A DNA stretch of 64,000 nucleotides from a virus. The stretch spans positions 6,607-70,606 of IMG/VR virus record IMGVR_UViG_3300021137_000010; one strand, written 5' to 3'. Under the pieces are notes generated by a model. That model was not told the DNA's origin. It did not search any database and was given only the letters and a program-made list of their open reading frames with translations. Both the position numbers and the translations under genes were made by a program. Positions 15,490 to 55,821 of this stretch are shown here, piece by piece (the stretch's first letter is position 1; each line of letters opens with the position of its first letter).

Positions 15490-15701
15490 TTTAGTACCAT
15501 CCTCTATAGAAGTAATATCGAGCCATAAACGATTGCATATCGTTGCTGGGCACAATGTCATTACCGTAATTATCTACGAAACGACTGACGATGACAACAC
15601 CTGTTGACATATATTTTGACTTTATTTGTTGATTAGACTGTGAAATTTACACACTCGTGTAAAGAGGGAGGTATGACGATATTTGAACATTGGGTCAACT
15701 A

Positions 15702-15785
15702 TGGAGCCCCCTGGAGGAATCGAACCTCGTACCGTCCATCTTTCGTTAAGGAGCGCTTTAGAAGAGCGCTAAAAGGGCAGGGGGC
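15702..15785 (-). tRNA. atypical D-armless tRNA-like RNA, anticodon UCU (Arg)
   Basis: acceptor stem GCCCCCT/AGGGGGC-T-CCA; T arm GAGG-TTCGATT-CCTC; anticodon arm AGCGCT-CTTCTAA-AGCGCT; no D arm. Confidence 0.75.
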
Positions 15786-15880
15786 ATACATTGGCATTTA
15801 TACAACAATGAAGATAGTTGATCTGTCCAGTTTAGTCGACATGACGAGCATACACCAGAAGTTAAGAAGGGTGCTACCTT

Positions 15881-16150
15881 TTACTCGTGTGTTAGCTCTT
15901 TATCTTTTTGTGTTTTTTTATCGAACTCGCCTGGTTTGATCTTACGTAGCCACTTCGCGGGGGCATGAGCTTTGTTTCCTACTCCACCGTACTCTGTTAC
16001 CAATTGATCTCGCGAGCTAACTTCCCACACTGTACCGTACAGAGAATGGTCACCGACGATTTTAACACACTGCACGACTGCTCCTACTTGAGAGCCAGTT
16101 ATCGTTTGTATCACTACTGCTAAACAGCCCGGTTCCAAATTATTCGACAT
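15881..16150 (-). CDS. hypothetical protein
   Basis: coupled ORF. Confidence 0.65.
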   Translation of the reverse strand: MSNNLEPGCLAVVIQTITGSQVGAVVQCVKIVGDHSLYGTVWEVSSRDQLVTEYGGVGNKAHAPAKWLRKIKPGEFDKKTQKDKELTHE

Positions 16151-28890: not shown

Positions 28891-29165
28891 AGCGGTTATT
28901 GGGAGATAAGGTCACCGTGACCTCAGAGTCATGCTTAGGCCACTAGGGCAAAGCGTTCGTCGTTCGAAGCGTTAGCTGCGTTTAGTTTTTCGCTGGTTTT
29001 ACGTGTACTGCATCACGATTCCTAATCATATCTACTTATTGCGCAGGCAATCTCCACGTCGGGCCCATCAAATATGGTCTGACTTTTACAACAGACCGTA
29101 GGCACTACCAGCCTAGCATATTTGGTGGACCCGGGGGCGTCGAAGCCCCTTCTTGCACACCTTTT
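28890..29165 (-). ncRNA. ssrA: circularly permuted two-piece tmRNA
   Basis: acceptor piece (T arm GGGGC-TTCGAC-GCCCC, CGGGTCC-A-CCA ending at 29123) precedes the coding piece starting GGGCCCG at 29066; G3-U70 pair; tag 28979-28935 AANASNDERFALVA*; outer ends approximate. Confidence 0.88.
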
Positions 29166-29174
29166 GATACAATT

Positions 29175-29786
29175 TCAAACAGAATTCTTATATAGAGTGG
29201 TCAACTTGGATAAACTATCCCCGTAGAGCACTCTGCGTTCTTTACTATTTATACCTTCATCCAGGTTTACCAATCTACCACCGTTGGCTACCAACCCGAA
29301 TATATCAATCAACTTCGATTCCAGCATCAATGCTTCTTTTTCTGTCAACCGATCTTTTAATACTTCTACGATAACCTCTTTACCAAACTGTTGTAAACGT
29401 TGCCGAACTTTTCTATGAGTTTCATTGCGGTTGAGGTTGTATGCTCTATTACCCGTGCCCTTGCCGACATAAAATGGCAGTTTTGTCATTCCTATTGATG
29501 CTGCAAAAGTTGTTTTTCCATTTTTACCGGCGTGAGCATTTTTAGTAGGCTCACAATGCGTATACACATAATACACAGGCGCATCATCCAGCATCAATGA
29601 GTTGTATACTGGTGAAATATCTGTGTTGTATATTTGCTGGCATGCATCTAATACACTTCCCGCACGCTCTTTATGAGTTCCATACTTACCAGCTCGGTGT
29701 TGCCCAATCAGGGTTTGGGCAAGTTTCAACAGCCGGGTGCAATCTTCCAGCGAATCGATGTCAACTTCGTATGATTTCAAGTTCAT
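29175..29786 (-). CDS. GIY-YIG-like (LEM-3-type) endonuclease
   Basis: YYVYTH...PFYVGKGTGNRA...EALMLESKLI...LVN. Confidence 0.8.
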   Translation of the reverse strand: MNLKSYEVDIDSLEDCTRLLKLAQTLIGQHRAGKYGTHKERAGSVLDACQQIYNTDISPVYNSLMLDDAPVYYVYTHCEPTKNAHAGKNGKTTFAASIGMTKLPFYVGKGTGNRAYNLNRNETHRKVRQRLQQFGKEVIVEVLKDRLTEKEALMLESKLIDIFGLVANGGRLVNLDEGINSKERRVLYGDSLSKLTTLYKNSV

Positions 29787-53179: not shown

Positions 53180-55528
53180 TTACAGTGCGGTGGGTGCTAC
53201 AGGTGCTGCTTTTTCAATTACATAATTATTAATAACCAAAATATCCAATCCACATTTTTTGAATGTGGTTACCGCGTCTTGTGGAGTTTCGACAATTGGC
53301 TCCTGACAGTTGAAGCTCGTGTTCAGTAACATCGGAATTCCAGTGATCTTATAAAACTCACTAATAAGCTTGTGATAACGTTCATTAGATTCTTTAGTCA
53401 CTGTTTGTATTCTCGCAGTCCCGTCTACGTGAGTTACACCTGGAATTTTATCAGATACCACAGGCATAATACGAGACATGTATGGACTTGGTTGATTTGT
53501 GTCAAAATACTCAGTATAATACTCTTCCAACACGCTGGGAGCAAACGGTCGGAAATCTTCTCGTAGTTTAATAGTCGAATTAATAATGTCTTTGATGTTA
53601 GGATTTCGCGGATCTGCAAGAATACTACGATTCCCGAGTGCTCTATTACCACTCTCGGACTTTCCTTGATACCACCCTACTATTTTACCATTAGCAATAG
53701 CCTGTGCGAGTTCGGTCGCGATCTCGTCAAACTGCTTATCCTTCCAAGATAACCCTTCAAATATAGCAGTATCAATATCATGTTCTTCCCCAGCATATAC
53801 TGTGGGAATATGTATATTACCATTTAATACATAGTCGGCGTGCATATATGTGCCTAACGCTTGCCCCTCGTCGCCAGGTGCAGGTGGTACAAATACATTT
53901 TCATACATCTTAGTAAATTCTTCAATTAGATAGCCGTTATACGCAACTCCGCCGCTGATACAAAGGTTTGACGAGGTCTTTAGTGAACCGACGACGTGAG
54001 TTACAAGACTGGTCGTTACTTTTTGCAATGTAAACGCTACGTCTTCCGTAGGTATTGTGTCGATGATGTTCCAATTTTCTGCCGACACACGTTTATCCGT
54101 TATATACTGATTAATAATATCACCAAAGTTCTCGTTGAATTTTCCATAGCCAGCTAATCCCATTAGTTTACCAGCGCCAAGATACCCCATTCCTGTATGT
54201 TGGGATAGCATATTCCATAAGCTCCCGATAGTTAACTTATCAGAGAGATCTACAATATTAAAGTGAACATCTACGAAGATGCAGCTGAATGTGCACCCTT
54301 GTCCGTCAATCGCTAACACGTCGGAGTCGGTATACCCAGAACTCAGTAACGCATATACAGCATGAGATTGATGATGATCGATGTAATAATAGTTATCAGT
54401 GTAATAACTATCCCACAGATTCGTAGGCTTAAATGAAAAAAAGTCTGAGGCAACCGGAAGATGAATATCTAACATATCCGATACGAATTTTTTCCCCAAA
54501 CTCGAACATGTAAACGCAATCACGTTATTATCAACACTGCAACTATATGTATAATTCGGCACAAAATGCGCTAGGAAAAATTCTCTACTCGGTCTCGAGT
54601 CGAAGGGTCCACCATCAGCGAGATTGTGTTTTCTCCTCGAGTACCGTTCCTCCTGTCTATGCAGAATGCCATCATATGTATTGTGATCGTGCATATTTAC
54701 CGCCGTTGCAAAAATATTCACACGAGCTGCAGCGCCGGGCACTTTGTGGAGGCGGGTCACTTTAGCGTGCAGTGTATTGATGCGAGTACGAGTCACTTTA
54801 GCAGGCGATTTGTGTTTTGACCAATCCCGCATATCCGTAGTAAAGTGGCTCCAACTCTCATTTGAAATGTTCGGAGAAACGTGAATGTCTGATGGTCGCA
54901 TCGCGTTAAAGTCTACTTTGTTTCGTAGAGTTAATTTATTTGCATTAAAGTCTCGATTCGATTTAACCAACAGCAGGCCAAACCCCTCTTGCATCGCGAT
55001 ACATTTTGCTTGATCTACTTCATGCTCGTTGTATTTAAATATGATATATTGCCAGTTAATACATTGCTCTAACTGTTTTCCAAGCTTCATCATTTCCCAC
55101 ACATTTTCGTAGTCTGACCCTATTCGGTATAGTTCACTCTTCTTATCGATACCATCAACCCCAAAGAACCACGCATTTTTGCCTTTACCGTAGCTAAATG
55201 CCGTTTTCCACCAATCGACGCTCCGACCAGTACCATTAGTCGAAATTCGCAATTTCTTGTTACGCTCGTCGCACAGTTTTAAAAAGGATAGAAAATTAGG
55301 ATGATATATCGGATCAGAAATTTGTCCACAGAACGCGACACCGCCATAGTAATCTAAAATTTTTACAAAGTCAATTTCAGCGAGGTCAAACGATCGTTTG
55401 ATTTGAGACTGGCTTCCTAACTCTTGTCTGTTACATTGTGGGCATCTTAAAATGCACCTGTGAGAAATATCCAAATTAGGTAAAAAATTTCGTTGATTTC
55501 GTATATACGTGTCAGTGATTCGGTCCAT
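53180..55528 (-). CDS. radical SAM domain fused to NodU/CmcH-family carbamoyltransferase
   Basis: CILRCPQC; HHQSHA, AIDGQG, GKLMGLAGYG, SGGVAYN, PGDEG, RALGNRSILADP, REDFRPFAP, HVDGTARIQTV, LNTSFN. Confidence 0.88.
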   Translation of the reverse strand: MDRITDTYIRNQRNFLPNLDISHRCILRCPQCNRQELGSQSQIKRSFDLAEIDFVKILDYYGGVAFCGQISDPIYHPNFLSFLKLCDERNKKLRISTNGTGRSVDWWKTAFSYGKGKNAWFFGVDGIDKKSELYRIGSDYENVWEMMKLGKQLEQCINWQYIIFKYNEHEVDQAKCIAMQEGFGLLLVKSNRDFNANKLTLRNKVDFNAMRPSDIHVSPNISNESWSHFTTDMRDWSKHKSPAKVTRTRINTLHAKVTRLHKVPGAAARVNIFATAVNMHDHNTYDGILHRQEERYSRRKHNLADGGPFDSRPSREFFLAHFVPNYTYSCSVDNNVIAFTCSSLGKKFVSDMLDIHLPVASDFFSFKPTNLWDSYYTDNYYYIDHHQSHAVYALLSSGYTDSDVLAIDGQGCTFSCIFVDVHFNIVDLSDKLTIGSLWNMLSQHTGMGYLGAGKLMGLAGYGKFNENFGDIINQYITDKRVSAENWNIIDTIPTEDVAFTLQKVTTSLVTHVVGSLKTSSNLCISGGVAYNGYLIEEFTKMYENVFVPPAPGDEGQALGTYMHADYVLNGNIHIPTVYAGEEHDIDTAIFEGLSWKDKQFDEIATELAQAIANGKIVGWYQGKSESGNRALGNRSILADPRNPNIKDIINSTIKLREDFRPFAPSVLEEYYTEYFDTNQPSPYMSRIMPVVSDKIPGVTHVDGTARIQTVTKESNERYHKLISEFYKITGIPMLLNTSFNCQEPIVETPQDAVTTFKKCGLDILVINNYVIEKAAPVAPTAL

Positions 55529-55821
55529 TACTGCGTCCCTTTTGTGCCACATTGTCGTTTACATGTAGCTGTTGCATGATTAGGGTCAGTTAATAACGTA
55601 GTAAAAAAGTTCTCCCACTGGTCAGATCCGAAAATTTGCTCTAATGAATCATTTTTAGATAGTTTTAAGACGTCATCTCGTAAGCCACGTTGCACTATGT
55701 CGTCATACGCTGCCCAGTTATCTAACCAACAACACGGAAGCATAAACCCATCGGAAGTGTAAGCGGCAGATTTATGGGTTGCTGGCTCGAATTGTAGGCA
55801 CTTGGGTATTATTCTTATCAT
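55528..55821 (-). CDS. stand-alone SPASM/twitch-like Fe-S protein
   Basis: PKC...SDGFMLPCC...SLEQIF...C...C. Confidence 0.7.
   Translation of the reverse strand: MIRIIPKCLQFEPATHKSAAYTSDGFMLPCCWLDNWAAYDDIVQRGLRDDVLKLSKNDSLEQIFGSDQWENFFTTLLTDPNHATATCKRQCGTKGTQ

Follow-up and report, generated by a model that had tools for sequence, protein, structure and literature searches.

A conserved family of phage tRNA-like genes with arginine anticodons, no D hairpin and a covarying pseudoknotted core

The 64-kb window analysed here is part of a 70.6-kb virus record (IMGVR_UViG_3300021137_000010) rated 26% complete, and it encodes on its minus strand a transfer RNA (tRNA)-like RNA of 84 nucleotides (nt) at 15702–15785, coordinates that we verified. 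This gene is conserved in phages and probably specifies a working, if non-canonical, tRNA-Arg(UCU) whose core is rewired and which reads AGA codons. It belongs to a widespread family whose RNA structure is conserved with covariation, whose anticodons are linked to arginine and whose members complement the canonical tRNAs present in the same phages; on the evidence of a scan of prokaryote genomes, the family is largely confined to viral contigs.

In the mechanism that we propose, the parts of the molecule that would face the translation machinery are kept, namely an acceptor/T branch of 12 base pairs (bp) in an 8/4 division, a canonical T loop, an anticodon loop of 7 nt that includes U33 and A37, and a CCA end. 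The core would be rewired: it has no D hairpin, a long-range helix (helix X) would stack on the 6-bp anticodon stem to yield an 11-bp arm, a D-loop-like GGA follows X, and a short helix (helix Y) would cross X to form a pseudoknot. The RNA would be expressed, charged by the host arginyl-tRNA synthetase (ArgRS) through the relocated A of GGA together with C35 and U36, and would decode AGA on the ribosome, with the GG contacting the T loop as G18–G19 do.

Architecture of the window RNA

The elements are given in the 5′ to 3′ direction of the RNA, running from 15785 to 15702.

15778–15785 (−): acceptor stem 5′ strand GCCCCCUG, 8 nt, partner 15706–15713; two-sided changes at 8/8 pairs and 92.6% of cells paired in 76 relatives of the 8/4 class
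15776–15777 (−): connector CC, 2 nt, leading from the acceptor stem to helix X; 2–3 nt in 82 parsed relatives (CC in 28, UC in 19), UA in the 7/5 class
15771–15775 (−): helix X 5′ strand CUUUU, abutting the anticodon stem, partner 15740–15744; from anchor-register pairing, the alignment and RNAalifold
15752–15770 (−): anticodon arm, with a 6-bp stem AGCGCU/AGCGCU, loop CUUCUAA and anticodon UCU at 15760–15762; from stem covariation and loop conservation
15750–15751 (−): helix Y 5′ strand CC, directly 3′ of the anticodon stem, partner GG at 15732–15733; from covariation in relatives
15745–15749 (−): A-rich linker UUAAC between the Y 5′ strand and the X 3′ strand (together with the preceding CC, CCUUAAC); the segment from the anticodon stem to the X 3′ strand is 6–13 nt in relatives, mostly with UAA(A)
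15740–15744 (−): helix X 3′ strand GAAAG, partner of 15771–15775
15735–15739 (−): D-loop-like motif AU-GGA, with GGA at 15735–15737; GGA conserved, resembling a canonical D loop
15729–15734 (−): CGGUAC, 6 nt, comprising the Y 3′ strand GG (15732–15733) and a 3-nt spacer to the T stem; among 82 relatives 6 nt in 51, 5 nt in 29 and 7 nt in 2
15714–15728 (−): T arm, with a 4-bp stem GAGG/CCUC and loop UUCGAUU; stem 100% paired in the 76 relatives, loop TTCGATT in 76/76 (required by the search pattern)
15706–15713 (−): acceptor stem 3′ strand CAGGGGGC, covarying partner of the GCCCCCUG strand
15702–15705 (−): discriminator U and encoded CCA; N-CCA encoded in 67/76 relatives of the 8/4 class, with discriminators U in 28, G in 22, A in 16 and C in 1

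An initial annotation, made by a model from the letters of the window, had described a D-armless tRNA-like RNA, and the window copy indeed contains no D hairpin; the 6-bp anticodon stem, UCU anticodon, discriminator U and encoded CCA that it listed were likewise all verified in the sequence. Its account of the stems stands as to their being intact but not as to the length of the acceptor stem, which it gave as 7 bp and which has 8 (GCCCCCUG/CAGGGGGC); the T stem has 4 (GAGG/CCUC). The split of the acceptor/T branch is accordingly 8/4 and not 7/5; a fifth T pair would be C-C. At the eighth acceptor position, the 76 aligned relatives have G-C in 54 and A-U in 5 and are unpaired in 17. In place of the D arm, for which the annotation counted 8 nt, 7 nt separate the acceptor and anticodon stems, too few for a hairpin. 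The window copy thus has the 8 + 4 = 12-bp branch, U73, CCA, the consensus T loop and the 7-nt anticodon loop with U33 and A37 of a tRNA, and lacks the D arm of an elongator tRNA, which Rfam alignments delete.

Antisense to the gene, a 99-residue open reading frame (ORF) at 15640–15939 (+) matches ORFs at three other loci. Those matches arise because the ORF overlaps a conserved RNA gene, and a protein annotation is therefore unwarranted.

Standard tools miss the gene. ARAGORN called no tRNA in the window and Rfam at gathering thresholds found none there, and an RF00005 search of the whole 70.6-kb record returned no match at E ≤ 1 (gathering threshold 29 bits). The best weak Rfam match of the window copy is tRNA-Sec (RF01852), at 25.6 bits against a cut-off of 47 and with the D arm deleted. 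In its mitochondrial mode, ARAGORN made a 64-nt partial call within the window copy and nothing in five other members of the family. Relatives with a 7/5 branch reach only 29.7–40 bits with RF00005, in alignments that delete the D arm and insert approximately 20 nt.

The sole Rfam match in the window at gathering thresholds lies elsewhere, at 28935–29185 (−): a tmRNA_permuted (RF04321; 53.5 bits, cut-off 47, E = 1.2e-07), which would mean a two-piece transfer-messenger RNA (tmRNA) gene in a phage without a canonical tRNA. Further tmRNAs are called by ARAGORN in family loci L028, L041 and L056, together with a permuted one in L156.

Relatives in viral contigs

A 27-mer from the 3′ half of the element is present in three viral contigs, whose elements show compensatory differences. 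Scanning viral contigs with a degenerate pattern gave 56 loci and, with the window included, 54 of 57 instances form 11–12 of the 12 acceptor and T pairs, the exceptions being L023 (at a contig end), L042 and L057. Dropping the AUGG requirement raised the count to at least 107 loci. The parsed relatives comprise at least 95 unique elements in 129 instances: 76 of the 8/4 class, 11 of the 7/5 class, 7 of the 9/3 class and 1 false match. Acceptor and T stems sum to 12 bp in all three forms. In prokaryotes (one genome for each of 185,579 species), the first pattern produced 14 matches, 4 of them true members and all on contigs of metagenome-assembled genomes.

The window sequence comes from a freshwater phage, as the DNA sequencing runs that contain the element are freshwater metagenomes; the search of sequencing runs found no RNA run that contains it. 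The element is identical in contigs from three other freshwater metagenome runs, and the contig of a fourth run is gapped at this site.

Helices X and Y covary and form a pseudoknot

The register of helix X was set by anchors and not by pairing, its 5′ strand being the 5 nt that precede the 6-bp anticodon stem and its 3′ strand the 5 nt that end two bases short of GGA. In this register, 80 of 82 unique sequences of the 8/4 and 9/3 classes form 5/5 standard pairs and the other two form 4/5, through 34 distinct strand combinations, whereas joining the 5′ strand of one sequence to the 3′ strand of another gives 5/5 pairs in 11.9% of cases. The CUUUU–GAAAG pairing, which the initial annotation had suggested might extend the anticodon helix, is borne out by these counts.

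Helix Y pairs the first 2–4 nt after the anticodon stem with 2–4 nt after GGA. It averages 2.80 bp within sequences versus 1.56 bp in non-self combinations and reaches at least 3 bp in 58 of the 82 sequences, with combinations that include GAC/GUC, GGCA/UGCC, AGC/GCU, CCA/UGG, CCU/AGG, GUCA/UGAC and GACC/GGUC. Since X and Y cross, they make the core a pseudoknot of the H type, whose first loop contains the anticodon hairpin.

When the 76 distinct 8/4 sequences are aligned with MAFFT, 94.0% of the helix cells are paired, compared with 70.4% after shuffling (0 of 500 shuffles were as high) and 36–52% in slid controls. Helix X (columns 12–16 with 48–52) is 97.9% paired with double changes at 4/5 pairs, and the anticodon stem is 95.6% paired with double changes at 5/6 pairs, its outermost pair being non-standard in 19/76. 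The central Y pair (columns 37–61) is formed in 75/76 sequences with 27 double changes; an alternative register of helix Y is 61.9% paired, a figure explained by the spacer before the T stem being either 2 or 3 nt. Helix pairs, those of X and Y included, account for nearly all top mutual-information pairs, and RNAalifold predicts helix X unaided. The lone non-helix pair, columns 8 and 53, looks like subfamily linkage and was not used as a tertiary pair. We also considered a local hairpin, UCCUU…AUGGA, which fits two sequences and not L003, and preferred helices X and Y.

These data bear directly on whether the element might be a decaying tRNA pseudogene, an attachment-site remnant or a set of chance hairpins, a reading with a vanishingly small probability in our judgement. 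It could draw on the failure of ARAGORN and Rfam to call the window copy and on the modest z-score of its fold, and it is refuted by covariation: at least 95 unique relatives carry compensatory changes in every helix. The identity of the sequence across the three other freshwater runs and the presence of the family in lytic phages and within tRNA clusters speak against it as well. The initial annotation had taken the intact stems as an argument against decay, and the compensatory changes agree with it; it had also reckoned with relatives that carry a canonical tRNA-Arg at this place, of which the window copy would be a deletion derivative, and the relatives instead share its architecture with no canonical tRNA-Arg in its stead.

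The 7/5 class and the link to arginine anticodons

Members of the 7/5 class have a 7-bp acceptor stem, UA, a 4-nt strand, one base, a 5-bp anticodon stem, a 3–8-nt linker and a 4-nt partner strand ending in GU, followed by AA(N0–2)GGA, 4–10 nt ending in U and a 5-bp T stem. A covariance model built from the 8/4 class scores that class at 80–99 bits, the 9/3 class at 49–59 bits and the 7/5 class at 35–44 bits. The same model recovered members with ACG and UCG (L008), GCG (L027) and Tyr GUA (L128) anticodons.

The anticodon loop reads CTTCTAA in 76/76 aligned 8/4 sequences, including 29/29 found with a pattern that leaves the loop free: run without the anticodon, the 8/4 pattern gave 31 loci, comprising these 29 UCU elements and 2 unrelated sequences. 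A scan of the 8/4 type for NCG anticodons gave 15 matches, one of which is a member (L366, ACG). Scanning for the 7/5 scaffold with the anticodon unconstrained returned at least 107 unique sequences. Among the matches listed, clean scaffold-type anticodons are TCT in 35, ACG in 20, TCG in 10, CCT in 6 and CCG in 1, against GAT in 1 and TAC in 1 (72 Arg versus 2); the pattern required GGA and then U, and the remainder are canonical tRNAs, sequences without acceptor pairing, and scaffold-type sequences that could not be parsed. A motif-free scaffold detector was discarded, as its non-Arg matches were mostly canonical D arms misread as anticodon arms, and arginine specificity therefore rests on the anticodon-free 7/5 scan.

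Rare non-arginine members do occur. That in L128 (13907–13996, −) is 8/4-like, with a Tyr GUA anticodon and GG followed by C instead of A; others lie in L254 (194–271, −) and L355, with Ile GAU and Val UAC anticodons.

The family fills gaps in phage tRNA sets

The 182 loci that hold a member with an Arg anticodon contain 959 canonical tRNAs according to ARAGORN. Where at least 8 canonical tRNAs are present (50 loci), a canonical tRNA-Arg with the same anticodon accompanies the element in 1 locus and a canonical tRNA-Arg with another anticodon in 23, which is the slot-filling pattern that a working isoacceptor would show. The tRNA region of Escherichia coli phage EC.P2 has 16 canonical tRNAs and that of Salicola phage SCTP-2 has 24, with one family member and no canonical tRNA-Arg in either. 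Locus L028 adds a UCU family member to canonical GCG, UCG and CCU tRNAs, and in locus L008, where none of the 10 canonical tRNAs is for arginine, the members have ACG, UCG and UCU anticodons. In a 249-kb, 93%-complete relative of the window phage, RF00005 has 0 matches and the element is the sole tRNA-like gene; in E. coli phage Bas93, the element is itself the sole RF00005 match.

The initial annotation had favoured a tRNA mimic, a nuclease decoy or a non-ribosomal aminoacyl donor, none of which we prefer in view of the 12-bp branch, the canonical T loop, the location in tRNA clusters and slot filling. A decoy would be a tRNA-Arg copy that soaks up or misleads a host factor, such as an anticodon nuclease or a tRNA-targeting defence, outside translation. 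We consider this unlikely, although bait would need an invariant anticodon loop of the kind found here, an odd core could block some enzymes yet attract others, and phage L010 and locus L012 each hold both a canonical tRNA-Arg(UCU) and a family member. Phage tRNAs reportedly counteract tRNA-cleaving defences in studies of PARIS. The members, however, bear five or six Arg anticodons that are non-redundant with the canonical set, conserve the acceptor branch, the encoded CCA and the canonical T loop, and have no partner protein conserved beside the gene.

AGA codons and arginine identity

AGA accounts for 11.8% of the Arg codons of the window ORFs (99 codons). Both AGA codons within a conserved carbamoyltransferase domain align with an invariant Arg in two solved homologues (PDB), and AGA therefore means Arg here. 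The gene in question, of the NodU/TobZ type, lies at 53180–55552 (−) and encodes 790 residues (Pfam Carbam_trans_C, E = 5.5e-68), including an N-terminal extension of approximately 380 residues without a confident family match.

These alignments, in which just two codons are informative, argue against a recoding tRNA that would accept a non-arginine amino acid and thereby give AGA another meaning in phage genes, as has been proposed for allo-tRNAs. To its credit, 8/4 and 9/3 branches are common to allo-tRNAs, some 9/3 examples of which have anticodons for AGA/AGG according to the accessible part of their description (PMC5389517), and the scaffold has its rare members with Ile, Val or Tyr anticodons. 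We nevertheless judge recoding very improbable given the preponderance of arginine anticodons in the anticodon-free scan, the retention of A after GG, and the want of a long variable arm of the type used by seryl-tRNA synthetase.

Bacterial arginine identity elements, as the accessible part of PMC9976931 gives them, are A20, C35, U/G36 and A/G73. The window anticodon UCU supplies C35 and U36, and the family keeps an A directly after GG. The window copy has no D loop in which A20 could lie, and the initial annotation had raised the requirement of bacterial ArgRS for A20 as a concern; it is probably answered by the GGA 3′ of helix X, whose A follows GG in 81/82 sequences.

The GGA motif and a possible re-threaded core

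GGA stands two bases after helix X in these 81 of 82 sequences, the exception being L179 with GGU. Judged by its column in the alignment, the motif occurs in 44 of 47 rows found without requiring GGA, and 2 of the 3 misses are alignment shifts. The motif resembles the GGA in the D loop AGUGGAUUA of the canonical phage tRNA-Arg(UCU) of L010. By resemblance alone, the X 3′ strand and GGA may correspond to tRNA positions 10–20, moved 3′ of the anticodon arm.

We tentatively extend this to a reading that is possible, albeit doubtful as a whole: the family would be a topological isomer of tRNA in which the 5′ strand of the D stem and the D loop have been moved 3′ of the anticodon arm. The strand entering the anticodon stem would be positions 22–25, and the X 3′ strand would be positions 10–13, followed by A14…G18-G19-A20. 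Although the backbone would follow an altered path, the molecule would retain the canonical L-shape and tertiary core, and the additional pseudoknot helix would brace the 8/4 class. Such a fold might have had a single origin in a phage tRNA-Arg before reaching phages of Proteobacteria, Actinobacteria and Firmicutes, and might be retained because it could let a phage tRNA-Arg escape or outcompete a host factor acting on canonical tRNA-Arg.

Several features are consistent with the swapped mapping. The pair of helix X next to the anticodon stem corresponds to G10:C25 in 62/76 sequences and the next pair to pyrimidine 11:purine 24 (Y11:R24) in 64/76. In the 7/5 class, hints come from the connector, as U8-A9 (required by the parse), and from the motif AA(N0–2)GGA (the parse anchor); the last base before the T stem, which was unconstrained, is U in 64/64 sequences, consistent with an A15:U48 pair.

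The D-stem-like composition of helix X and the D-loop-like motif after it would also be expected of a rearranged gene mended at the RNA level, whose transcript is cut and re-ligated, in the manner of permuted or split tRNA genes, into a canonical cloverleaf. A kinase-like ATPase with weak matches to polynucleotide-kinase and RNA-ligase PHROGs lies 1.1 kb downstream in the window. We regard this route as highly improbable: helix Y covaries, though a canonical product would leave it without a function, approximately 94 loci show no conserved processing gene next to the element, and the family is present in small phages. Bacteria are not known to have a pathway of this kind.

Points that weigh against a working tRNA-Arg

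Set against our preferred reading, a working tRNA-Arg(UCU) with a rewired core, are several observations. The fold of the single window sequence is unremarkable (−29.6 kcal/mol, z = −1.74, with 14 of 200 shuffles as stable), and the evidence therefore rests on relatives. Helix Y is just 2 bp (CC/GG) in the window copy. The long-range helix is weaker in the 7/5 class, where 64 sequences form 3/4 standard pairs in 40, 2 in 20 and 4 in 2; non-self combinations reach at least 3 pairs in 22%, and one pair clearly covaries (C-G 23, G-C 19, A-U 6, U-A 5). All searches demanded a near-canonical T loop and most demanded CTTCTAA or GGA-like motifs, so that motif conservation is partly by design. The family loci are pieces of at most approximately 15 kb and not whole genomes. 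A canonical tRNA-Arg with the same anticodon stands beside the element in 5 of the 182 loci, so that the element cannot be the only decoder in every case.

The equation of GGA with G18-G19-A20 is drawn from resemblance. The window discriminator is U73, whereas bacterial arginine identity prefers A/G73 in the accessible part of PMC9976931. A promoter and terminator scan around the window element found no convincing σ70-like promoter directly upstream and no terminator.

Comparison with known tRNAs

Canonical tRNA-Arg(UCU) (RF00005; the phage of L010 as comparator) shares with the family the loop CUUCUAA, the T loop UUCGAnU, the 12-bp branch and the CCA end, as well as the GGA found in the D loop AGUGGAUUA and a location in phage tRNA clusters. 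The window RNA differs from it in having no D hairpin, a helix X that spans the anticodon arm, GGA 3′ of that arm, a 6-bp anticodon stem, the 8/4 split and the pseudoknot helix Y. Permuted and split tRNA genes, viral tRNA-like structures and the tRNA-like domain of tmRNA are also related to tRNA, with altered connectivity or pseudoknots. The mature product of permuted genes, however, is a canonical tRNA; in viral tRNA-like structures the pseudoknot lies in the acceptor arm and there is no comparable decoding anticodon arm; and the tmRNA domain lacks an anticodon arm. With tRNA-Sec (RF01852), the window copy shares an 8-bp acceptor stem and a 6-bp anticodon stem in addition to being its best Rfam match, but that match is below cut-off with the D arm deleted, and its anticodon is UCU, not UCA.

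Mitochondrial D-armless tRNAs are short, carry a D-replacement loop and have no GG/T-loop consensus. The phage RNA, in contrast, is 84 nt long, with a canonical T loop, a GG motif and an extra region of approximately 23 nt that contains the covarying long-range helix and the pseudoknot. What the two have in common, as far as the accessible part of PMC7609411 goes (mt-tRNA-Ser(AGY), nematode mt-tRNA-Ser(UCU)), is the missing D hairpin and an extended anticodon helix, in molecules that are working adaptors in mitochondria.

The nearest published class, judging by the accessible part of its description, is that of the 8/4 and 9/3 allo-tRNAs (PMC5389517; Mukai et al., NAR 2017), which share with the family the 8/4 or 9/3 division of a 12-bp branch, a longer anticodon stem, tRNA-Sec-like matches and occurrence in phages. 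As described there, allo-tRNAs have a D arm with a long stem and a tetraloop, a long variable arm and serine-type identity, whereas the phage family has no D hairpin, a pseudoknotted helix Y of 2–4 bp and anticodons tied to arginine. The openly searchable literature, leaving aside the supplements of PMC5389517 on phage tRNA clusters and 'irregular tRNAs', which could bear on novelty, yielded no account of phage or bacterial tRNAs that are D-armless or rearranged. In a 2020 review on non-canonical tRNAs, D-armless forms are discussed for mitochondria only, and neither the word 'phage' nor the word 'virus' occurs.

Should these RNAs prove to be working arginine tRNAs, translation outside mitochondria would not depend on the cloverleaf, and phages would harbour a tRNA lineage with another connectivity: no D hairpin, a long-range substitute for the D stem, and a pseudoknot. 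Phage tRNA inventories and codon-usage analyses may then systematically miss arginine decoders. The fold would provide a natural way to test which properties of the tRNA core are needed by ArgRS, EF-Tu, RNase P, modification enzymes and the ribosome, as well as a possible new orthogonal tRNA chassis and a lead on whether phages reshape tRNAs against host tRNA-directed defences.

Cultured phages and gene neighbourhood

Among cultured phages, the 8/4 class occurs in Salicola phage SCTP-2, Vibrio phages Gary and GRLPWR and Nitrincola phage 1M3-16, at a site left unannotated in all of them. The 7/5 class matches 257 GenBank phage records, with phi92 and other Justusliebigvirus, Felixounavirus, 110–145 kb Klebsiella phages, and E. 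coli jumbo, Streptomyces, Campylobacter and Listeria phages among its carriers; in the 60 of these 257 records that were listed, the site mostly bears no feature and in a few is annotated as tRNA-OTHER, tRNA, tRNA-Val or a hypothetical protein. In EC.P2, the element lies between tRNA-Leu and tRNA-Ser and scores 40 bits with RF00005, with the D arm deleted and 20 nt inserted. A promoter-like site, TTGACA…TATAGT, read by eye, precedes this element, and a similar one precedes the next tRNA.

The neighbours of the window gene are a protein of a PHROG 'DNA polymerase' family, the kinase-like ATPase, a MazG-like pyrophosphatase and ThyX, none of which recurs beside the element in the approximately 94 loci. 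The commonest neighbour clusters there resemble homing endonucleases by motif (GIY-YIG-like and zinc-finger-like, in 8 loci each), as exemplified by L195 2150–3094 and L189 4050–4871, and the Bas93 locus has an annotated HNH endonuclease adjacent to the element (L229 1034–1483). Such neighbours may help to spread the gene between phages.

Other unusual tRNA-like genes lie in the same set of loci. A GC-rich tRNA-like RNA at L059 3744–3836 (+) has approximately 20 near-identical counterparts (L063, L066, L070, L077, L079, L083, L087, L088, L092, L094, L134 and others), for which RNAfold gives an acceptor stem, a 6-bp first hairpin, a long second arm with the terminal loop UCCGACA or CCGAC, and a T arm with the loop UUCGAUU. 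Two miniature tRNA-like sequences, L084 5472–5531 (−) and L124 4345–4416 (−), have an 8-bp acceptor stem, a 4-bp T arm and a short segment replacing the anticodon arm, and that of L124 retains the GAUGGA motif. ARAGORN calls tRNA-Ile(tat) genes of 90–92 nt at L002 8988–9079, L008 9282–9372, L032 155–245 and 9154–9243, and L044 2807–2897, which may be allo-tRNA-like with a long extra arm. It also calls suppressor-type tRNAs with tta and cta anticodons at L161 6822–6906 (+) and L167 9087–9158 (−), loci that also hold the arginine scaffold, and these may point to stop-codon recoding in the phages concerned.

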